Positions 24,664 through 33,616 of a stretch of 64,000 nucleotides of DNA are shown in pieces. Both the position numbers and the translations under genes were made by a program. How positions within the stretch are numbered: position 1 is the stretch's first letter; the number at the start of each line of letters is the position of its first letter. The DNA comes from Bacillota bacterium (GTDB lineage: Bacteria > Bacillota > Clostridia > Christensenellales > Aristaeellaceae), in the NCBI GenBank assembly GCA_023411175.1, contig JAEYPB010000043.1, forward strand, positions 19,324-83,323. The letters are read 5' to 3'. Below the pieces are notes generated by a model. That model saw nothing but the letters and a program-made list of their open reading frames with translations, did no database searches and was not told the DNA's origin.

Positions 24664-25508
24664 GCCTTTCCCTCCCCCTCGATGAGCTGAAGCTTGCGCC
24701 GGTTGCCCTCGTCCAGAAGCGCGCGCAGCCGCGCCAGATCCCGCCCGTCCACCGCCCGCCTGATCTCCGTGAGCCTTGCGATCAACCCGCCCAACTCGTC
24801 GCTCAATGCGTCGCGGTTCAGGTCGAACAGCTCCGCCCACATGTCGGCGTCGAGACGCGCCACCCGCGTCATATCCCGGAAGCTGCCCGCGGAAAAGCCC
24901 TGATGGCCGGGTGCGGCAGGGCTCATCACATAGGCCGACGACGCCGCGTGGGCAAGCTGCGACGTGTAGGCGATCATGCGGTCATGCGCCTCCGGCGTCG
25001 TGACCACGGTGCGGCCAAAGCCCATGGCCCTTGCGATGTCCGAGAGCGCCTCCGTCGCGCCGCAGGGGCGTCCGTCCGAAGGCGTCATGATCAGCGAAGC
25101 GCCCCGGAACAGCCCGGCATCGGCATTCGCGTACCCGCCGACCTCGCGCCCGGCCATCGGATGCGCGCCGACGTAGCGCACGCCCCGGTCGCGGGCGACG
25201 GGCTCGACCTCCCGCACCACGTAGCGCTTGACGCCGCAGAAATCCGCCGCCAGCGCGCCCGGCTTCATTCTGGGGAGCGCGCGCTTCAAAAACGCCACCG
25301 CGTCCTGGGGCCTGAGCGCCACGATGACCAGGTCGGCCTCCGGAAGGTCTTCCGGCAGGAAGGCCGCGCGGATCGCACCGTCCGAGAGCGCCCGGCGGAC
25401 GACGCCGAGGTCCTTGTCGCAGCCGATGACCTCCATATCGGTGTTTGCGGCCAGCGCCTTCGCCACCGAGCCGCCGATCAGCCCCAGCCCGACGACAATT
25501 GCTTTCAT
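24660..25508 (-). CDS. tyrA: Prephenate dehydrogenase
   Basis: Rossmann N-terminus MKAIVVGLGLIGGSVAKAL. PDH domain. Confidence 0.85.
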   Translation of the reverse strand: MKAIVVGLGLIGGSVAKALAANTDMEVIGCDKDLGVVRRALSDGAIRAAFLPEDLPEADLVIVALRPQDAVAFLKRALPRMKPGALAADFCGVKRYVVREVEPVARDRGVRYVGAHPMAGREVGGYANADAGLFRGASLIMTPSDGRPCGATEALSDIARAMGFGRTVVTTPEAHDRMIAYTSQLAHAASSAYVMSPAAPGHQGFSAGSFRDMTRVARLDADMWAELFDLNRDALSDELGGLIARLTEIRRAVDGRDLARLRALLDEGNRRKLQLIEGEGKA

Positions 25509-26518
25509 GCGTCCACCCCGACCGCCGCGGCGCGCACCGTCATGATCTTGGGCACGAGTCTGTCGAAGGCTTCCGGCGTCAGCGACTGGGGGCCGTCGGA
25601 CATCGCGTGCTCCGGGTCGTTGTGCACCTCGATCATCAGCCCATCCGCGCCGCAGGCGACGCTCGCCATGGCCAGCGGTTCCACGAAGCGGGAAATGCCG
25701 GTTGCGTGGCTGGGATCGACGACGATGGGCAGATGGGTCAGGTGTTTCAGGACCGGCACCGCCGAGATGTCGAGCGTGTTCCTTGTGGCGGTTTCAAAGG
25801 TGCGGATACCCCGCTCGCACAGGATCACCTGCTCGTTCCCGCCCGCCATGATGTACTCGGCGCTCATTAAGAGCTCCTGAAGCGTGCTCGCAAGGCCGCG
25901 CTTTAAGAGGATCGGCTTTCGAAGCAGGCCCAATTCCTTCAAAAGCTCGAAGTTCTGCATGTTGCGCGCGCCCACCTGAATCACATCCACATCCTTGAAG
26001 AGCGGGATGTGGGCGGCGTCCATGAGTTCCGTCACGATGGGAAGGCCGGTGGCCGCCTTGGCCTCCAGAAGAAGGTCGATGCCCTCCTTGTGCAGCCCCT
26101 GGAACGCGTAGGGCGAAGTGCGCGGTTTGAACGCGCCGCCCCGGAGGAGCCCCGCGCCGGCATCCCGGACGCGCTTTGCCACTTCCACAATCTGCGCCTT
26201 GTTCTCCACCGAGCAAGGGCCCGCGATGATTTGGAAATGGCCGCCGCCGATCTTGACGCCGCCGATGTCCACGACGGTGTCCGCCGGATGGAATTTCCGG
26301 TTGGCGCTCTTGTAGGGCTCCTGAATCCTGCGCACGTCTTCAACAATTTCCAGCGCGCGGATCAGGTCCATGTCCACCCGGGTGGTGTCGCCCACCAGGC
26401 CCACGATCGTCTGCTGTTTGCCCTCGGAAAGATGCGTCTCCAGCCCCATGCCGTGAAGCCAGTTCAGAAAGTTGTTCATCTGTGCCTTATCGGTTTTTCC
26501 CTTCAGGATGACGACCAT
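25505..26518 (-). CDS. aroF: 3-deoxy-7-phosphoheptulonate (DAHP) synthase, class I-beta with an N-terminal ferredoxin-like regulatory domain
   Basis: KDO8P/DAHPS TIM-barrel motifs (LLRGGAFKPRTSPY, GLPIVTE). RBS AAAGGAGGGG. Confidence 0.9.
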   Translation of the reverse strand: MVVILKGKTDKAQMNNFLNWLHGMGLETHLSEGKQQTIVGLVGDTTRVDMDLIRALEIVEDVRRIQEPYKSANRKFHPADTVVDIGGVKIGGGHFQIIAGPCSVENKAQIVEVAKRVRDAGAGLLRGGAFKPRTSPYAFQGLHKEGIDLLLEAKAATGLPIVTELMDAAHIPLFKDVDVIQVGARNMQNFELLKELGLLRKPILLKRGLASTLQELLMSAEYIMAGGNEQVILCERGIRTFETATRNTLDISAVPVLKHLTHLPIVVDPSHATGISRFVEPLAMASVACGADGLMIEVHNDPEHAMSDGPQSLTPEAFDRLVPKIMTVRAAAVGVDA

Positions 26519-26659: not shown

Positions 26660-26688
26660 ACTGTTGCATACAGGGTACCTCCGTAATG

Positions 26689-26717
26689 GATTGGAATCAT
26701 TATAAACGCTCAAAATC
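26689..26717 (-). promoter_or_regulatory. Consensus sigma-A promoter (TTGACA, 17-bp spacer, TATAAT) driving the aro leader and operon
   Basis: The minus-strand sense reads TTGACAgcgggattttgagcgttTATAAT. Confidence 0.55.
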
Positions 26718-26763
26718 CCGCTGTCAACGCGAATTTGCGCTTTTTTCAAGGTGCGACATTATT

Positions 26764-27921
26764 TTACACCAGCCGGTCCAGCGTCAGGCCGTCTTCCGGG
26801 ATAAAGGCGCGCCAGTAGGCCACGCTCTCGCGGATGCGCTGAAGTACGGCGCGGTTGATGTCGGCGGTGCCGGTGAAGATCTCAAGCGTCAGGTAGAGAT
26901 CCGGGAGCAGCGGCGGCAGCCCTTCGGCGGGCGCGGCGTCGTAATGCGCCTTGATGGCGCGGAGCACCTTTTCCGGCTCGACGATGCCACGGGCATTGTT
27001 CTCCTTCGTAAACGCCCAGTGGGGGGACGAAGTGGCGTTCGCCTGCTGCAGGTGGATGATGGGCGAATAGCCCGCGAGCCGCTCGAGCCAGCGGTAGGGA
27101 TCGCCGTCCTCCGCGGGCGCGAACATGTGCGGGTATTCGTCCATCAGCGCGTTGATCTCATTGAGTGGCAGCGAGTCCGAATTTTCGAACAGCTTAACGG
27201 CCTTCTTCGGCCCAAGCCAAAGCTCCGGAACCGGGTCGCCCGCCTTGTACCGCGCGTGCATTTCAAGAATTCTTTCGTCGTCGGGGCGCGAGAATTTTCG
27301 CTGCCCGTTCATGTGGCCCACGTCCACCGTCAGGTAGAACGGCGCGCCGCCGATCAGGTACACCTCGCGCAAAAGCTTCTCCGAGCCCTCGACCGTCCAG
27401 GGAATCTGGTGGGGCGTGTACATCTGCTCCACGCCCAGAATGCCCAGCCCCTCCGCCGCCCCAAAGGCGGCGAGCTCCGCAAGATCCCGGTACAGCGTGT
27501 GCTCGGCCTCGGCGTACTTCTGGGGATCCTGCAGCACGGAATCGGTGAACGCGTGGCAGTAGAAGCCCAGCCCCGCCCCGACGGAAGCGGCGGTCTTCGC
27601 CATGGGCTTGAGCCATTTGTTCAAGAATCTGTCCCGGACGATGGGATGGGTGTGGCTGAGCCCCAGCGTGGCGTAGGTGCCGTGGCCGGAGTAGAGGTTC
27701 GCCACCACAATGCCGGTCGCGGCCATCGCCTTCTTCACCTCGCCCGACCACCAGGAGAGGTACTCCTGCCCCATGTACATCGGGTCACACTCATTGTCGG
27801 CGCTGGCCTCCACATAGGTGAGCCCCAGATCGCGGATGACCTCCGCCCACTCGGAAGGATGGGTATACCGCTTGGACGCAAAGCAGTTGTCGATCGCGAG
27901 GTAGATCTTCGGATAGCGCAT
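26764..27921 (-). CDS. Sugar phosphate isomerase/epimerase family protein (xylose isomerase-like TIM barrel)
   Basis: 386 aa. Weak family resemblance only. Start set at the ATG preceded by AAAGGA. Confidence 0.7.
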   Translation of the reverse strand: MRYPKIYLAIDNCFASKRYTHPSEWAEVIRDLGLTYVEASADNECDPMYMGQEYLSWWSGEVKKAMAATGIVVANLYSGHGTYATLGLSHTHPIVRDRFLNKWLKPMAKTAASVGAGLGFYCHAFTDSVLQDPQKYAEAEHTLYRDLAELAAFGAAEGLGILGVEQMYTPHQIPWTVEGSEKLLREVYLIGGAPFYLTVDVGHMNGQRKFSRPDDERILEMHARYKAGDPVPELWLGPKKAVKLFENSDSLPLNEINALMDEYPHMFAPAEDGDPYRWLERLAGYSPIIHLQQANATSSPHWAFTKENNARGIVEPEKVLRAIKAHYDAAPAEGLPPLLPDLYLTLEIFTGTADINRAVLQRIRESVAYWRAFIPEDGLTLDRLV

Positions 27922-28092
27922 GCGCTTCAATCCTTTCAACGGGTGTATGTTCCCGCCCCATCATACACTTGGGATGCTTTGGCTGTCAACCAGAAAAGGC
28001 GCAAACGCCTTGCATGGCGGGCCGGAGTCTGGTATCATGCGAGGGTGGGCGGCACGTCTTCGGAGCCGCACGGCATGTAAGGGGGCGAGCGC

Positions 28093-29529
28093 ATGGACGA
28101 GGGGCTCTTTGAACGGCTGGAAGCCTACGCGGCGAAGGGCATTCTCGCGATGCATATGCCCGGCCACAAGCGCGGCGCCGGTGCGGCCGGGTATCTCGCC
28201 GGGCTGGGCGCGCGCCTCGACATCACTGAAATCGACGGCTTCGACAACCTGCATGCGCCCGAGGGAATCCTCAGGGACGCGATGGCCCGTGCCGCCGCGC
28301 TATGGGGCAGCGGGCGCGCTTATTTTCTTGTGAACGGCGCGACCGGAGGCATCCTTGCGGGTGTGCGCGCGCTGACAACGCGCGGCGACAAGGTGATCGT
28401 CGCCCGGAACAGCCACCAAGCCGTATACCACGCGCTGGAATTGATGGAGCTGGACGCGGCCTATGTGCTGCCCGCCTTTGACGAGGTCACCGGGCTGCCC
28501 GGCTCGGTGACGCCGGAGTCCGTGGAGCAGGCGCTCCGCGCGCACCCGGATGCGCGGCTCGTCATTGTCACCAGCCCCACCTACGACGGCGCGGTTTCAA
28601 ACATCGCATCCATCGCCCGCGCCGCCCACGCCCGGGGCGTTCCGCTTCTCGTGGACGAGGCCCACGGTGCGCATCTGGGGTTTCACCCGTACTTTCCCGG
28701 CGGCGCGGTGCGCGCGGGGGCGGACATCGTCGTCCAGAGCGTGCACAAGACGCTGCCCAGCCTCACCCAGACCGCCATCGCCCACGCGGGCGGCCTGGCC
28801 GACCCGGATCGCTTTCAGGCAGCGCTGGACATCTTCCAGACCACCAGCCCTTCCTACCTGCTCCTCGCCTCCATCGACGGTTGCGTCCGGCTGATCGAGC
28901 GGGAGGGTGAATGCCTGTTTGAGGCCTGGGCAACGCGGCTCTCGGGCTTTGAAGATGCAACCCGCGCGCTTCGGCGCATCGCCCTTTTGGAGCGCGGCGA
29001 AAATGAACGGTCGATGTTCGCCTTTGACCGCAGCAAGATCGTCATCTCCACCCGGGGGCTGAACCTTACCGGCCCCAAGCTGATGGATTTGCTCCGCGCG
29101 CGGCACGGCATCGAACTGGAAATGGCGGCCCGGGACTACGCGCTGGCGATGACCGGCCTCACAGAGCAGGACGGCGCGCTGGAAGCGCTGGCTGCGGCGC
29201 TCCTTGAAATTGACCGCGAATGCGCCCCGGCAAGCGCCCTGGACTCTGGCGGCGCGCCGTTTTTGCCGGAACGGGCCATGCCCATCGCCCAGGCGCTCCT
29301 GATGGAACGGGAGGCCGTGCCGGTTTCTGAGGCCGCAGGCCGCGTCAGCGCCCAGTACGCCTGGGCGTATCCGCCCGGCATCCCGCTGATCGCGCCGGGC
29401 GAAGTGGTGGACGGCCGCTTCCTCCGCGAAGCGGCGCGGGGCCTTCGCGCCGGGATCGCCCTTCGCGGCGGCCCCGCGGAGGGGCTTCATTGGGTCGTTC
29501 GCGGCGCGCAGGCCGTTCCCCCGAAATAA
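28093..29529 (+). CDS. PLP-dependent Orn/Lys/Arg decarboxylase family protein
   Basis: N-terminal MHMPGHKRG and the PLP-lysine region SVHKTLPSLTQTA are typical of the family. Confidence 0.8.
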   Translation: MDEGLFERLEAYAAKGILAMHMPGHKRGAGAAGYLAGLGARLDITEIDGFDNLHAPEGILRDAMARAAALWGSGRAYFLVNGATGGILAGVRALTTRGDKVIVARNSHQAVYHALELMELDAAYVLPAFDEVTGLPGSVTPESVEQALRAHPDARLVIVTSPTYDGAVSNIASIARAAHARGVPLLVDEAHGAHLGFHPYFPGGAVRAGADIVVQSVHKTLPSLTQTAIAHAGGLADPDRFQAALDIFQTTSPSYLLLASIDGCVRLIEREGECLFEAWATRLSGFEDATRALRRIALLERGENERSMFAFDRSKIVISTRGLNLTGPKLMDLLRARHGIELEMAARDYALAMTGLTEQDGALEALAAALLEIDRECAPASALDSGGAPFLPERAMPIAQALLMEREAVPVSEAAGRVSAQYAWAYPPGIPLIAPGEVVDGRFLREAARGLRAGIALRGGPAEGLHWVVRGAQAVPPK

Positions 29530-29540
29530 CCTCGCCACGG

Positions 29541-29569
29541 TTGACAGGCAGGGATGCATGCCCTATAAT
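29541..29569 (+). promoter_or_regulatory. Consensus sigma-A promoter (TTGACA, 17 bp, TATAAT) upstream of the SCIFF peptide gene
   Basis: TTGACAggcagggatgcatgcccTATAAT. Confidence 0.55.
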
Positions 29570-29607
29570 GTACGGAAGTAGAAATCCACCGAAGGGAATG
29601 CATCATT

Positions 29608-29745
29608 ATGAAGAGAATCATCACCCTCGAAACGCGCGAACTGAGCGCGAAGACCGGCGGCTGCGGCGAATGCCAGACTTCCTGCCAGTCGGCCTGCAAA
29701 ACCTCCTGCGGCATCGCCAACCAGCAGTGCGAGCAAGAGAACTGA
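29608..29745 (+). CDS. scfA: SCIFF ribosomal peptide precursor (six cysteines in forty-five residues): MKRIITLETRELSAKTGGCGECQTSCQSACKTSCGIANQQCEQEN
   Basis: 45 aa with 6 Cys and the hallmark GGCGECQTSCQSACKTSC motif. Lies immediately upstream of the radical SAM/SPASM maturase. Not in the supplied ORF track because it is below the length cut-off. Confidence 0.85.
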   Translation: MKRIITLETRELSAKTGGCGECQTSCQSACKTSCGIANQQCEQEN

Positions 29746-29813
29746 ACCTCCGGCGTCTCCGGGCCGCCTGACGCATGCGCGCAAGGCGGCATTTTTTATG
29801 ACAGAGGAAACAC

Positions 29814-31181
29814 ATGATCCATCAATATACGCTGAACGGTTACAACATCGTCCTGGACGTCCATTCGGGGTCGGTACACGCGGTCGATCCGCTGGCCTAC
29901 GACGTGATCGCTCTCTTTGAACGCGAAGCGCCGGATGAAATTGTCCGGCGGATGCTGGAAAAGTACGCGGCCGATCCCGCCGTCGACGAGAGCGAAATCC
30001 GCTCGTGCATCGACGACGTGGCTGCGCTGAAAGAGGCGGGCAAGCTGTTCGCCCCCGACCCTTACGAAGGCTTCGCGGTTCCGCCCAGAAAGCCCTACGT
30101 CAAGGCGCTCTGCCTGCACGTGGCCCACGCCTGCAACCTCAACTGCGAATACTGCTTCGCGAGCCAGGGCCGCTATCAGGGCGAGCGAGCGCTGATGTCC
30201 TATGAGGTGGGCGTGCGCGCCATCGATTTTCTGATCGACAACGCCGGGCCCCACAAGACGCTGGACGTCGACTTTTTCGGCGGTGAGCCGCTGATGAACT
30301 GGGACGTCGTCAAGCGGCTGGTCGCCTACGCCCGCGGGCGCGAGACAGCGAGCGGCAAGCGCTTCCGCTTTACGCTGACCACCAACGGCCTTTTGGTGGA
30401 CGACGACGTCATCGAATTCTCGAACCGCGAGATGCACAACGTAGTCATGAGTCTGGACGGCCGCAAGGAAGTGCACGACCGGCTGCGCCGCGACTACGCG
30501 GGGCAGGGCAGCTACGACCGCATCGTGCCGAAGTTCCAGAAGTTTGCGAAGAGCCGCGGCAAAAAGAGCTACTACGTGCGCGGCACCTTCACCCACGAAA
30601 ACACCGATTTTCTGAACGACATCCTGCACATCGCCGACCTCGGCTTTACCGAGATCAGCATGGAGCCGGTGGTCTCCGCCCCCGGCGACAAGAGCGCGCT
30701 GACGGAGGCGGATATGCCCGTGCTGCTCGAGCAGTATGAACTGCTCGCAAAGGAGATGCTCCGGCGCGAGCGCGAGGGGCGCGGCTTCACCTTTTACCAC
30801 TACATGATCGACCTGACACACGGTCCCTGCCTGATCAAGCGACTCACCGGCTGCGGCGCGGGCACCGAGTATTTCGCCGTCACACCCCAGGGCGACCTGT
30901 TCCCCTGCCACCAGTTCGCGTCCGACCCTTCCATGAAGGTGGGAAACGTCTGGGACGGCGTAACCAACCGGGATGTGACGGGCGAGTTCGCGAAGTGCAA
31001 CATCTATGCGCGGCCCGAGTGCCAGGACTGCTGGGCGAAGCTCTATTGTTCCGGCGGCTGCGCGGCCAACGCCTATCACGCCACCGGCTCAATCACCGGC
31101 GTGTACGAGTACGGCTGCAAGCTGTTCAAAAAGCGCATCGAGTGCGCGCTGATGATGAAGGTCGCTCAGGCACAGGGATAA
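29814..31181 (+). CDS. scfB: SCIFF radical SAM maturase (radical SAM core plus SPASM domain)
   Basis: CLHVAHACNLNCEYC (CxxxCxxC) and C-terminal Cys-rich SPASM motifs (CGAG...CHQF...CQDCWAKLYCSGGC). Confidence 0.9.
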   Translation: MIHQYTLNGYNIVLDVHSGSVHAVDPLAYDVIALFEREAPDEIVRRMLEKYAADPAVDESEIRSCIDDVAALKEAGKLFAPDPYEGFAVPPRKPYVKALCLHVAHACNLNCEYCFASQGRYQGERALMSYEVGVRAIDFLIDNAGPHKTLDVDFFGGEPLMNWDVVKRLVAYARGRETASGKRFRFTLTTNGLLVDDDVIEFSNREMHNVVMSLDGRKEVHDRLRRDYAGQGSYDRIVPKFQKFAKSRGKKSYYVRGTFTHENTDFLNDILHIADLGFTEISMEPVVSAPGDKSALTEADMPVLLEQYELLAKEMLRREREGRGFTFYHYMIDLTHGPCLIKRLTGCGAGTEYFAVTPQGDLFPCHQFASDPSMKVGNVWDGVTNRDVTGEFAKCNIYARPECQDCWAKLYCSGGCAANAYHATGSITGVYEYGCKLFKKRIECALMMKVAQAQG

Positions 31182-31192
31182 AAGCATAACCA

Positions 31193-31225
31193 AAAGGCGG
31201 CGATGAAACCATCGCCGCCTTTTTC
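31193..31225. terminator. Bidirectional intrinsic terminator (maturase convergent with flotillin)
   Basis: AAAAGGCGGCGATG-AAACC-ATCGCCGCCTTTTTCT. Confidence 0.5.
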
Positions 31226-31264
31226 TGTCGCCTCAAAGCACTACCGTCTTGTGTCCTCTTCAGA

Positions 31265-32743
31265 TTAGACGGTCTCCGCCGCATCCGCGGCTGCATCGGG
31301 CTTCGGCGCGCCCTCCGGCGCTTCCTTCTGCGCGCGGCCCACCAATCCGCCGGTGGAGATGTCCCGGATCATCTTCGGGACGTCCAGCCCCACCGAGGCC
31401 TTCATCGCCTCGAAGGTCTGGAGCATCGACCCGGTCACGTCCCGGGTGAGGCCGCTGGTCGCGCCCTCGCCAAAGAGGATGATCTTCTCGGTCTTTGCAA
31501 GCGGTTCGCCGATGGCGCGGGCGATCTCCGGCATCCGATCGACCACCATTTCCAGCATCGCGGCCTGCCCGTAGTTCTGCATGGCGTCGGCCTTGAGTTC
31601 CAGCGCCTCCGCTTCGGCCTTGCCCTTGAGGAGGATCGCCTCTGCCTGCCGCTGCGCCTCGTAGAACTGGGCGTCCGCGATGGCCTGACGCTCGGCCCGC
31701 TCGGCCTCGGCCCGGGCGATGCGGGCGTCGCGCTCGGCGTTCGCCTTCTCGCGAATTTCGACGTTGAGCCGCTCGCGCTCGACTTCCACCTGCTGGCGGC
31801 TGAGGTCTGTCTCGCGCTGCAGACGCACCATTTCGGCGGCGGCGCGCTCCTCTTCGAACGTCTTGCGCGCAACTTCCTTCTGCACGTCGTAGGCGATGTC
31901 GGCGTCCGCGCGGGAGCGGTCCTCAAGAATTTTGTACTCGGCCTTTTTGAGCGCAAGAATCTTCGCCTGCTCGGCAATCAGCGCTTGTGCCTCCAGCTCA
32001 GCCTTGTTGCCCTGCTGCCGCGCCTCGGCGGAGCGGATCTGCGTATCGCGCTCGGCCTCCGCCTTGGCGATGGCGGCGTCGCGCATCTTCTCCTGAATGT
32101 TGCGGGTGGCCATGGTTTCGACCACCCTGTCGTCATCGGAGAAGTTCTGGATGGTGATGTTGACGATTTCAAGGCCCATGTTGCGCATGTCGGAAGCCGC
32201 CGCCTTGGAGGTCTCCGCCGCAAACTTGTCGCGGTTCTGCACGAGGTCCGCGATGGTCATGCGGCCGATGATCTCGCGCATGTTGCCCTCCAGCACCTGC
32301 GTGGCGATGGCCGCGATGTCCGCCGGCTTCCAACCGAGGAACTGCTCGGCAGCGGTGGCGATGGATACGTCGTCCGAGCCGAACTTGATGTTGGCGACGC
32401 CATCCACCATGACCGGGATGTACTCCTGAGACGGCACCGGCTGCGTGGTGCGGATGTCCACCTGCATGATGCCCATGTTGAGCTGATCGACGCGCTCAAA
32501 GAACGGAATGACAAAGGTCGCGCCGCCGCGCACGATGCGGTAGCCGAAGCGCTTGACCACCTCGCGCCCGTTATCGTCCTTGACGCGGTACTTCCTGCGC
32601 CGCCCCGAGATGATCAGCGCCACGTTGGGCGCGACCTTGACGTACTGCACACGAAACGCGATCAAAAGTACCATGACCACCACCGCGAGGCCGACCCACC
32701 CGATCCCCGGCAGCATGAACAGCTTGTCCCAATTCACCGGCAT
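31265..32743 (-). CDS. Flotillin-like SPFH/band-7 family protein
   Basis: N-terminal TM, SPFH domain and a long Ala/Glu-rich coiled coil (EAERAERQAIADAQ...). Start set at MPVNWDKL with RBS GGAGGG. Confidence 0.85.
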   Translation of the reverse strand: MPVNWDKLFMLPGIGWVGLAVVVMVLLIAFRVQYVKVAPNVALIISGRRRKYRVKDDNGREVVKRFGYRIVRGGATFVIPFFERVDQLNMGIMQVDIRTTQPVPSQEYIPVMVDGVANIKFGSDDVSIATAAEQFLGWKPADIAAIATQVLEGNMREIIGRMTIADLVQNRDKFAAETSKAAASDMRNMGLEIVNITIQNFSDDDRVVETMATRNIQEKMRDAAIAKAEAERDTQIRSAEARQQGNKAELEAQALIAEQAKILALKKAEYKILEDRSRADADIAYDVQKEVARKTFEEERAAAEMVRLQRETDLSRQQVEVERERLNVEIREKANAERDARIARAEAERAERQAIADAQFYEAQRQAEAILLKGKAEAEALELKADAMQNYGQAAMLEMVVDRMPEIARAIGEPLAKTEKIILFGEGATSGLTRDVTGSMLQTFEAMKASVGLDVPKMIRDISTGGLVGRAQKEAPEGAPKPDAAADAAETV

Positions 32744-32837
32744 CCCTCCAAGCGTCGTTTGTCCCTTGTAGTACGGTGGGCGCTTGCCCGCTCCATTATG
32801 GCACAATTTGTTAATATACACAATACGCAAACGCAAA

Positions 32838-32866
32838 AATGGCGTCCGTTTTCGGACGCCATCCCT
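32838..32866 (-). terminator. Intrinsic terminator for the kinase gene pair
   Basis: ATGGCGTCCG-AAAA-CGGACGCCAT followed by TTTTGCGTTTG (minus-strand sense). Confidence 0.4.
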
Positions 32867-32878
32867 GCACTCAAACCG

Positions 32879-33616
32879 CTACATTTCCGCGTATTCGCCG
32901 TCGCCAGCGACCCGGAAGTTGACGTCTCCCCGCGCGCTGTGCCCGAGGTAGCGGCGGATGTTAGGCCCGTCGCAGCCCTCATAGTGGGCGCGGGCTTCCG
33001 CCTCGTCCGCGCCGCCCAGCATCTTACGCCGGATCAGCCGATCCTTCAGCACCGCTTCGTCCGCCCACAGCGCAATGGCATAATCGCATCCATCCCGAAG
33101 GCCCGAATACCCCGGTTCGTTCAGAAGCAGCCAGTTGCCCTCTACCAAAAGGATTTTACCGGTCACCGGGATGGCGCCATCCACCACATCGTGCAGCCGC
33201 CTGTCGTAAGCGGGCCAGCGCCCGAGGCCAGCCTTCAGCGCGCGCACCGCATCCGCGAGCGCCACCGCGTCAAACGTCTCAGGGCTGCCCTTGACCCGAG
33301 CCATGGGCAAGGTTTCACCATCCCGAACCGCCGTATGGGCTGCAATGTATCGCGCAGGGTAGTGAAAGCCATCCATTGGCAGCGCTTGCAATAGACCCGG
33401 CGCGCGCGCCGCCGCGAGATGCTCCATGAGAAGCGACAGCGTGCTCTTGCCCGCGCCGGGCGGACCCGCGAGGAAGGCGACCAGACGCCCGCCACCCGCC
33501 GCCTGTTGGGCAAAAAGATGGTCGATCAATCCCTCCAGAGTGCGCTCCGACGCTTCGGAGAGCAATGCCGATAGGCCGAATCCGCTGACCGTGAGCTCAA
33601 ACCTGCGCCCCGCCAT
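32879..33616 (-). CDS. P-loop nucleoside/nucleotide kinase family protein (uridine kinase/PRK-like)
   Basis: Walker A GPPGAGKSTL. Its start is 2 nt from the upstream PfkB stop. Confidence 0.6.
   Translation of the reverse strand: MAGRRFELTVSGFGLSALLSEASERTLEGLIDHLFAQQAAGGGRLVAFLAGPPGAGKSTLSLLMEHLAAARAPGLLQALPMDGFHYPARYIAAHTAVRDGETLPMARVKGSPETFDAVALADAVRALKAGLGRWPAYDRRLHDVVDGAIPVTGKILLVEGNWLLLNEPGYSGLRDGCDYAIALWADEAVLKDRLIRRKMLGGADEAEARAHYEGCDGPNIRRYLGHSARGDVNFRVAGDGEYAEM

Follow-up and report, generated by a model that had tools for sequence, protein, structure and literature searches.

The scfAB locus

A stretch of 64,000 nucleotides from a GC-rich member of the Clostridia (contig JAEYPB010000043.1; the whole 64-kb stretch analysed is called the window below) holds a 45-codon, cysteine-rich reading frame, scfA, followed by scfB, a gene for a radical S-adenosylmethionine (SAM) enzyme. 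The locus raises the question of whether these genes are a SCIFF (six-cysteines-in-forty-five) precursor and its maturase, how they would be expressed, and which cross-link the product would carry. The locus can be read with high confidence as a two-gene scfA-scfB ranthipeptide operon. The pair itself is ordinary, being a known SCIFF/ScfB ranthipeptide system that is found in most Clostridia and is already catalogued; the family has thousands of catalogued members, which standard annotation pipelines name. What is new here is modest and comparative, namely a conserved promoter and putative attenuator architecture, a split of the peptides into Gly and Thr subtypes, and the linkage to a gene for a pyridoxal 5'-phosphate (PLP)-dependent enzyme.

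With the limit of the open reading frame (ORF) listing lowered to 30 aa, scfA is read as the earlier note had described it: an ATG-initiated frame whose 45-aa product, MKRIITLETRELSAKTGGCGECQTSCQSACKTSCGIANQQCEQEN, contains six cysteines (positions 19, 22, 26, 30, 34 and 41). A 16-residue leader, MKRIITLETRELSAKT, is followed by the invariant core GGCGECQTSCQSACKTSC and the tail GIANQQCEQEN. The peptide covers nearly the whole of both the NCBIfam model TIGR03973, 'six-cysteine ranthipeptide SCIFF' (71.5 bits; cut-off 50), and the Pfam model PF13165 (74.5 bits; cut-off 27).

The locus was compared with 80 related loci, which are the best matches to the window ScfB, and with two peptide sets made up of the top 120 matches per query; the proportions given below describe those neighbourhoods of the SCIFF family rather than the whole family. 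The 18-aa core is the same in 77 sequences (the window and 76 loci) and is encoded there by 73 DNA versions. Among the loci the core-coding DNA differs from that of the window at 1-13 of 54 nt, and because every one of these changes is synonymous, scfA is, by its substitution pattern, a real gene under purifying selection and no chance ORF. The leader, with the motif M-x-R-I-x-T-[ILV]-x-T-[RK]-[DN]-L, is also well kept: across 63 locus peptides M1, R3, I4, T6 and T9 are invariant or nearly so. The window leader is two residues short, with 16 residues before GGC against 18 in 62 of the 63 related peptides, and has Glu at position 11, where 52 of the 63 have Asp. A short leader also occurs in a few metagenome peptides (e.g. 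P0002, P0006 and P0010). The exact window peptide was absent among 239 database peptides, the closest of which is 89% identical. A search of the PDB with the peptide returned spurious matches only, and a full-text literature search for the core sequence gave no match.

The absence of scfA from a simple ORF track, as claimed earlier, is plausible, because 45 aa lies below the usual 60-aa threshold and longer shadow ORFs overlap the gene (93 aa on the plus strand and 101 aa on the minus strand). Such long shadow ORFs are a usual artefact of DNA with about 65% G+C. Around the locus, antisense or out-of-frame ORFs of 320-469 aa shadow real genes at 29796-31079 and 28597-29559 (minus strand) and at 26686-28080 and 31985-33394 (plus strand); one of them, 427 aa long, runs antisense to scfB. 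These ORFs could mislead a simple ORF track.

The scfB gene follows scfA on the same strand after a gap of 68 nt. Its 455-aa product, previously proposed to be a radical SAM enzyme with a C-terminal SPASM domain, scores 722 bits against TIGR03974, 'thioether cross-link-forming SCIFF peptide maturase' (cut-off 425). It stays under the cut-offs of the 'not_ScfB' orphan model NF040492 (517 bits; cut-off 855), of the PapB (264.6; 340) and QhpD (260.5; 453) models, and of the anaerobic sulfatase maturase model. The best match among solved structures is CteB of C. thermocellum (5WGG/5WHY; E=4e-167), with 54% identity over 444 aligned residues. The radical SAM motif CX3CX2C (C107, C111 and C114; Radical_SAM PF04055, 54.4 bits) is aligned with that of CteB, and the SPASM cysteines C339, C347, C365, C403, C406, C412, C416 and C435 are all aligned with cysteines of CteB, in the pattern C347-x12-G-x4-C365 ... 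C403-x2-C406-x5-C412-x3-C416 ... C435. A match to Fer4_12 scores 41.3 bits. The SPASM domain is established by the full-length equivalog match together with the alignment of all these cysteines to the CteB structure. Residues 1-90 align without large gaps to the N-terminal domain of CteB, and an N-terminal, PqqD-like recognition element (RRE) for peptides made by the ribosome and then modified post-translationally (RiPPs) is likely in the window enzyme too. In 5WGG the N-terminal domain of CteB binds the leader (PMC8326336).

The order of the pair is kept in the relatives: scfA lies directly upstream of scfB in 77 of the 80 loci, while two of the other three have a short flank and one has a frameshift. 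Among species-representative genomes, the nearest locus belongs to a Christensenellales metagenome-assembled genome (MAG; locus L001) from an anaerobic membrane bioreactor, with syntenic flanks and a ScfB that is 83% identical; the next-nearest loci are from Oscillospiraceae, Faecalibacterium, Ruminococcus and Acutalibacteraceae. Both comparisons proposed in the earlier note, of the peptide with the SCIFF model and of the enzyme with the maturase model, gave matches above cut-off, and every family-defining feature of SCIFF/ScfB that can be checked in a sequence was found, the RRE as a likely one. No evidence contradicts the identification, and its weak points are all functional.

Promoter and intergenic hairpin

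The promoter described earlier as TTGACA-17-TATAAT matches the sigma-70/SigA consensus at 12 of 12 positions. A scan of the window, the profiled part of which has a G+C content of about 63-65%, found two exact and three one-mismatch matches to TTGACA-17-TATAAT, with 0.05 expected by chance. The other exact match (26699-26727, minus strand) faces a minus-strand ORF (25505-26518) that is 93% identical to its counterpart in the nearest relative. Within 150 nt 5' of scfA, 67% of 70 related loci have a promoter match of at least 11/12, compared with 0.4-0.5% in controls; when 10/12 or better is counted, the figures are 86% and 4-6%. The controls were windows drawn at random from these loci, or their upstream regions after shuffling. 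Because the promoter recurs across these loci far above the controls, its strength is, on comparative grounds, a trait of the family and no accident of the window. High expression of scfA, which the earlier note suggested from the promoter, is a reasonable expectation, and the conservation strengthens it.

Both hexamers are identical in the nearest relative, in which the spacer differs. A block of the 5' untranslated region running from GGAAGTAG to CGAAGGGAATG is kept between the window and this relative, and its CGAAGGGAATG part, at the putative ribosome-binding site of scfA, is identical. The sequence ATGCAT, which occurs in the promoter spacer and in the 5' untranslated region, was considered as an operator-like repeat and dropped, as the spacer is unconserved in the nearest relative.

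The gap between the two genes contains a G+C-rich hairpin followed by a T-run. The 74-nt segment 29743-29816, comprising the 68-nt gap and flanking codons, folds with -26.2 kcal/mol (z=-2.0). Of 71 sequences (the window and 70 loci), 56 have a hairpin directly before at least four T in this gap, and the stems are unrelated to one another. Since the position of the hairpin is kept while the stem sequences are unrelated, the element is best described, by this comparison, as a conserved structure rather than a conserved sequence. Its anatomy suggests a leaky intrinsic terminator, through which far more precursor than maturase would be made, as is common in RiPP operons. Neither Rfam, at its gathering thresholds, nor a scan for tRNA genes gave a match in the whole window, so a known riboswitch or leader RNA does not appear to be involved. 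The promoter and the terminator-like hairpin together predict a short, abundant scfA transcript, which would be useful for detection of the native peptide.

Gly and Thr subtypes and the site of the cross-link

Residue numbers for the comparison with published peptides were set from the statement in a review that Cys32 is the fourth cysteine, and from Thr-type peptides with an 18-residue leader. In the latter, cysteines stand at positions 21, 24, 28, 32 and 36; Thr34 is the Thr of C-K-T-S-C, and the residue after the fifth cysteine is number 37. Because the window leader has 16 residues and not 18, Cys32, Thr34 and residue 37 correspond to Cys30, Thr32 and Gly35 in the window.

At the Thr37 position, 118 of the 119 nearest database peptides have Gly, as does every one of the 77 peptides that the 80 loci yielded, with a tail of the form G-[VI]-A-N-Q-x-C-E. 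A search seeded with a Thr-type peptide gave Thr at this position in 117 of 117 peptides, with the tail T-V-G-N-Q-x-C-E. Neither set shows any variation at the Thr34 position (119/119 and 117/117, 236 peptides in total). As far as these alignments reach, the SCIFF family has two large subtypes, with Gly and Thr at position 37, and the window peptide is a member of the large 'C-G(I/V)ANQ' subtype.

Two reviews describe SCIFF maturases as forming a single thioether, which joins Cys32, the fourth cysteine, to Thr (PMC8326336, PMC8172795). According to these reviews, the linked residue was Thr37 in work in vitro and Thr34 when CteA and CteB were co-expressed in E. coli, at the gamma carbon as judged by deuterium labelling, and the discrepancy is described there as unresolved (PMC8326336, PMC8172795). 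A Cys30-Thr32 C-gamma thioether is somewhat favoured for the window peptide by analogy, since the equivalent of Thr34 is the only one of these acceptors that is available in both subtypes. The window peptide is a natural test case for Thr34 as the conserved acceptor, because it has no Thr37.

A SpeA/YaaO-family gene beside the pair

Directly upstream of the promoter lies a gene on the same strand whose 478-aa product matches PF01276 OKR_DC_1 (180.9 bits) and, in its C-terminal part, PF03711 (37.2 bits); 12 nt separate its stop codon from the -35 box of scfA. The protein has the short OKR_DC_1 fold of about 480 aa without the N-terminal wing domain, and carries the PLP-lysine motif S-V-H-K at residue 216. 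No NCBIfam model reached its cut-off for this protein. Its best match in the PDB, over the full length, is 2X3L (E=5e-48), an uncharacterised protein of S. aureus. In Firmicutes the 'ancestral-form' decarboxylases of the aspartate aminotransferase (AAT) fold comprise the arginine decarboxylase SpeA and its paralogue YaaO; the latter affects the 5-aminopentanol modification of elongation factor P (EF-P) and is usually encoded upstream of tmk (PMC8503589). The S. aureus gene upstream of tmk was called a YaaO homologue by Li et al. (PMC8503589), and 2X3L presumably corresponds to it. Among the related loci, no tmk-like gene is conserved beside the PLP gene.

A homologue of the PLP gene lies within the flanks in 68 of the 80 species-level loci, on the same strand as scfAB in 66, and is the sole conserved neighbour of the pair, other real neighbour families each occurring in at most 11 loci. 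In 23 loci the homologue stands upstream of scfA, an order shared by the window, and in 43 it comes directly after scfB, where gaps are mostly -19 to +17 nt and reach up to 215 nt; a further locus has it 1.6 kb downstream on the other strand. Of 67 homologues, 66 retain the PLP-lysine motif, and independent gene calls with precomputed Pfam annotation give the same order of OKR_DC_1, SCIFF and radical SAM genes. Because the downstream-type gene directly follows scfB at short gaps, it is probably co-transcribed with scfAB. About seven loci with full flanks are missing the PLP gene.

In a distance tree, the same-strand downstream-type PLP genes form one clade, nested beside the upstream-type lineages. 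Since the downstream-type genes form a single clade, the PLP genes are more likely to be one orthologous family that went through essentially one rearrangement, in which adjacency and strand were kept. The tree speaks against repeated independent rearrangements, and it is less likely that the two arrangements contain different paralogues, given this nesting and an identity of 0.44 between the groups against 0.55 and 0.64 within them.

The neighbourhood differs in other branches of the family. In the sampled Thr-type loci (L081-L092 and L102-L107), yajC and/or tgt are found upstream, followed by scfA, scfB and then secD/secF and recJ, and no PLP gene is present in them. One Gly-type lineage (L093-L097) has tig-clpP-clpX directly upstream of scfAB, without the PLP gene. 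The searchable full-text literature yielded no description of a link between SCIFF peptides or ranthipeptides and a decarboxylase. A functional link of the PLP enzyme to SCIFF/ScfB may be suspected from the gene order, though tentatively, and synteny inherited within a single large clade would suffice to explain the adjacency. The PLP neighbour provides a new lead on the poorly understood role of SCIFF in Clostridia of the gut and of anaerobic digesters.

Proposed expression, maturation and role

The consensus housekeeping-type promoter would drive strong transcription of the 45-aa precursor. To judge from its anatomy and conservation, the hairpin and T-run after scfA would stop most transcripts, and read-through alone would reach scfB, so that much peptide and little enzyme would be made. 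By comparison with homologues, the RRE of ScfB would bind the conserved leader M-x-R-I-x-T-[ILV]-x-T-[RK], and auxiliary cluster 1 would hold a core cysteine thiolate at its open iron site. The radical SAM cluster would then make the 5'-deoxyadenosyl radical, which would abstract a hydrogen from a side chain and lead to a non-alpha thioether, most likely between Cys30 and the gamma carbon of Thr32, as between Cys32 and Thr34 in CteA made in E. coli. The catalytic steps are established for CteB, Tte1186 and PapB, and are extended to the window enzyme on the strength of 54% identity and conserved ligands. In SCIFF maturases, which carry three [4Fe-4S] clusters, the leader is bound to the RRE as a beta-strand (PMC8326336, PMC8172795). 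Selenium extended X-ray absorption fine structure of Tte1186 and PapB with selenocysteine-substituted peptides showed that auxiliary cluster 1 binds the donor residue at its open iron (PMC10177961).

Chen et al. (2020), as cited in PMC8102284, reported knock-outs in C. beijerinckii, in which sporulation gene expression was lowered and agr expression raised. By analogy, these knock-outs in solventogenic clostridia weakly suggest that the window peptide is most likely a small signalling or regulatory peptide. A recent preprint counts ranthipeptide clusters among the most conserved biosynthetic gene clusters across the orders of clostridia, no species having more than one. The statement of the earlier note that the structure and role of the product are essentially unknown is thus partly outdated: for homologues a Cys-Thr C-gamma thioether, the donor on auxiliary cluster 1 and knock-out phenotypes have been reported, although the role is still poorly understood.

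Alternative readings

Several points weigh against the reading of the locus as a pair under a conserved attenuator that makes a single Cys30-Thr32 thioether. Published work disagrees on the position of the cross-link, with Thr37 reported from in vitro work and Thr34 from E. coli, and the reported link uses one of six invariant cysteines, so the product may carry more or different links. The intergenic fold only modestly beats shuffled sequences, and the stand-alone Pfam domains of ScfB fall just under their thresholds, SPASM PF13186 by 0.1 (21.4 bits; gathering score 21.5) and PqqD PF05402 by 0.3 (23.1; 23.4). None of them contradicts the identification itself. That a small ORF stands by chance beside an enzyme of another SPASM family (sulfatase maturase, PapB, QhpD or orphan) has a negligible probability: the enzyme does match other SPASM families weakly, as homology predicts, but their models stay far under cut-off while TIGR03974 is well exceeded, and in practically all relatives with enough upstream flank the peptide gene lies next to the enzyme gene. 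The model scores and the synonymous-only variation of the core in 77 sequences rule this reading out. The site of the link is less settled. A Gly-type peptide carrying a different or larger thioether set, with several cysteines used and with acceptors such as Thr24/Ser25 or the tail residues Asn38/Gln39/Gln40/Glu42 (C-beta or C-gamma, as in QhpD and PapB), is possible but distinctly the less probable outcome. All six cysteines and the whole 18-aa core are invariant, yet only one cysteine takes part in the reported link, the site of which differs between in vitro and in vivo work; moreover, ScfB scores substantially on the models of PapB and QhpD, which form Cys-Asp/Glu links, and the tail N-Q-x-C-E is kept in both subtypes. 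On the other hand, both experimental systems gave a single link from the fourth cysteine, and a Thr34 that is invariant in 236 peptides fits the role of acceptor. The Cys30-Thr32 link is preferred here.

The preferred reading treats scfA and scfB as a unit of two genes. A unit of three, in which the Gly-type PLP enzyme works with SCIFF and ScfB, for example by making an amine in step with the peptide, or by modifying a protein or peptide in the way that YaaO does for EF-P, is a possible but doubtful extension. The frequency of the PLP homologue, its strand, its probable co-transcription in the downstream arrangement and its conserved lysine motif all speak for it, as do the agreement of independent gene calls and a rearrangement that changed the order while keeping adjacency and strand; the Thr-type loci, with secDF/recJ instead of the PLP gene, fit as well. 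However, direct action of the enzyme on the peptide is chemically unlikely, because PLP decarboxylases need a free alpha-amino acid. The change of order is also a single event, with no repeated independent gains, the tig-clpP-clpX lineage and the loci with full flanks but no PLP gene do without it, scfA in the window has its own strong promoter, and the adjacency could be synteny inherited in one large clade. The combined proposal, that in the Gly-type branch (Christensenellales, Oscillospirales and related groups) the locus is a three-gene module and Cys32-Thr34 is the ancestral, physiologically relevant cross-link, is put forward as speculation; if true, it would settle the conflict between the acceptors reported in vitro and in vivo. 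Rather unlikely is a SCIFF that is primarily an intracellular cysteine-rich factor (for metal or Fe-S binding, redox or regulation), with the ScfB link only shaping the peptide. Neither the window nor the related loci have a conserved protease, exporter, immunity gene or regulator beside scfAB, and no exporter, leader protease or immunity gene accompanies the pair in either subtype. The peptide is extremely conserved, the preprint gives no more than one copy per species across the Clostridia, and a review holds the wide distribution against an antimicrobial role (PMC8326336). Against an intracellular factor stand the effects on agr and on the sporulation transcriptome, which are read as quorum sensing in PMC8102284. 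The two-gene operon, most likely with a Cys30-Thr32 link, remains the reading adopted for the window.

Other features of the locus and its relatives

A gene for a FloT-like flotillin/SPFH protein (31265-32836, minus strand; PF01145) converges on scfB and shares the bidirectional terminator with it. The protein scores 323 bits against NF058507, under the cut-off of 700, and the gene is not conserved next to scfAB in the relatives, the nearest one included. The terminator was listed on the minus strand by the terminator scan; on the plus strand it folds with -25.6 kcal/mol, and the stem is followed by a T-run.

In some relatives, most of them MAGs with the label Lachnospiraceae or Clostridia, the precursor is a fusion in which one ORF of about 87-91 aa holds two full leader and core SCIFF units, so a single ScfB would act on a tandem substrate (Table 1). 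In locus L063 (5718-5943) the SCIFF frame is broken after the leader, reading MKRIQTLNTRKLVDQDLSTYG and then a stop, probably through a frameshift or assembly error, and locus L047 (5775-5921) has a variant core that starts with SGC instead of GGC.

Table 1. Coordinates of the scfAB locus in the window and of selected features in related loci
Feature	Position	Strand	Evidence
PLP-dependent 'ancestral-form' AAT-fold decarboxylase-family gene (SpeA/YaaO)	28093-29529	+	PF01276, PF03711, 2X3L match
Putative scfA promoter, sigma-70/SigA type: TTGACA 29541-29546, 17-nt spacer, TATAAT 29564-29569	29541-29569	+	12/12 match
Likely scfA ribosome-binding site GAAGGGA, 10 nt before ATG	29591-29597	+	predicted from sequence
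scfA, SCIFF precursor, 45 aa	29608-29745	+	TIGR03973, PF13165, synonymous-only core variation
G+C-rich hairpin (29763-29790), then A and T6 (29792-29797)	29763-29797	+	fold, conservation
Likely scfB ribosome-binding site GAGGA, 5 nt before ATG	29804-29808	+	predicted from sequence
scfB, thioether-forming radical SAM/SPASM maturase, 455 aa	29814-31181	+	TIGR03974, CteB alignment
Predicted bidirectional terminator hairpin AAAAGGCGGCGATG-AAAC-CATCGCCGCCTTTT, ending scfB and the convergent flotillin-like gene	31192-31228		terminator scan, fold
PLP genes in related loci (examples)	L021 7449-8864, L007 7452-8894, L098 2468-3901		
Fused SCIFF precursors	L026 5722-5991, L030 5728-5997, L032 5649-5924, L043 2345-2620		
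Fused SCIFF precursors	L044 5677-5940, L049 5564-5839, L059 5676-5939, L077 1079-1342		
Fused SCIFF precursors	proteins P0001, P0005, P0016		

Comparison with known systems

SCIFF and ScfB were defined bioinformatically in 2011, and biochemistry and structures have followed since 2016, as outlined in PMC8326336 and PMC8172795. The closest known system is CteA/CteB (thermocellin) of Acetivibrio (Clostridium) thermocellus, with the structures 5WGG and 5WHY. It consists of the same two families in the same order of peptide and then enzyme; CteB is 54% identical to the window ScfB over the full length with the radical SAM and SPASM cysteines aligned, and the window's 18-aa core is that of Thr-type peptides, the reported type of CteA. 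The tail differs, G-I-A-N-Q in the window against T-V-G-N-Q in the Thr type, and the acceptor used in vitro, Thr37, is absent in the window. These features of CteA are taken from Thr-type peptides and from the numbering of the review, and the window leader has 16 residues against 18. The gene context is also different, with the PLP enzyme upstream in the window, whereas the sampled Thr-type loci have yajC/tgt upstream and secDF/recJ downstream.

Tte1186a/Tte1186 of Caldanaerobacter subterraneus was the first SCIFF pair to be characterised biochemically, with three [4Fe-4S] clusters and a single Cys-Thr thioether. Its peptide is described as closely similar to CteA, and the link was reported to Thr37, a position at which the window has Gly.

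PapA/PapB (freyrasin) of Paenibacillus polymyxa form a ranthipeptide system whose homologous maturase also forms side-chain (non-alpha) thioethers. On its own, different precursor PapB makes six Cys-X3-Asp links, to C-beta, and the window ScfB remains below the cut-off of its model. QhpD, which acts in the maturation of quinohemoprotein amine dehydrogenase, is likewise a homologous SPASM enzyme and forms Cys-Asp/Glu thioethers at C-beta or C-gamma; its homology pointed the field towards non-alpha links (PMC8326336). Unlike ScfB, it has a protein subunit as its substrate and not a RiPP precursor, and the window enzyme falls under its cut-off as well. The closest family after ScfB is the orphan maturase NF040492, the cut-off of which is not reached; the window enzyme is no orphan, because a SCIFF peptide is encoded directly upstream. 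The sactipeptide synthases AlbA and SkfB share with ScfB the radical SAM chemistry, the RRE, the auxiliary clusters and the formation of Cys thioethers on RiPP precursors, but they make the link at the alpha carbon (sactionine), and SkfB matches the window ScfB with an E-value of only 4e-6.

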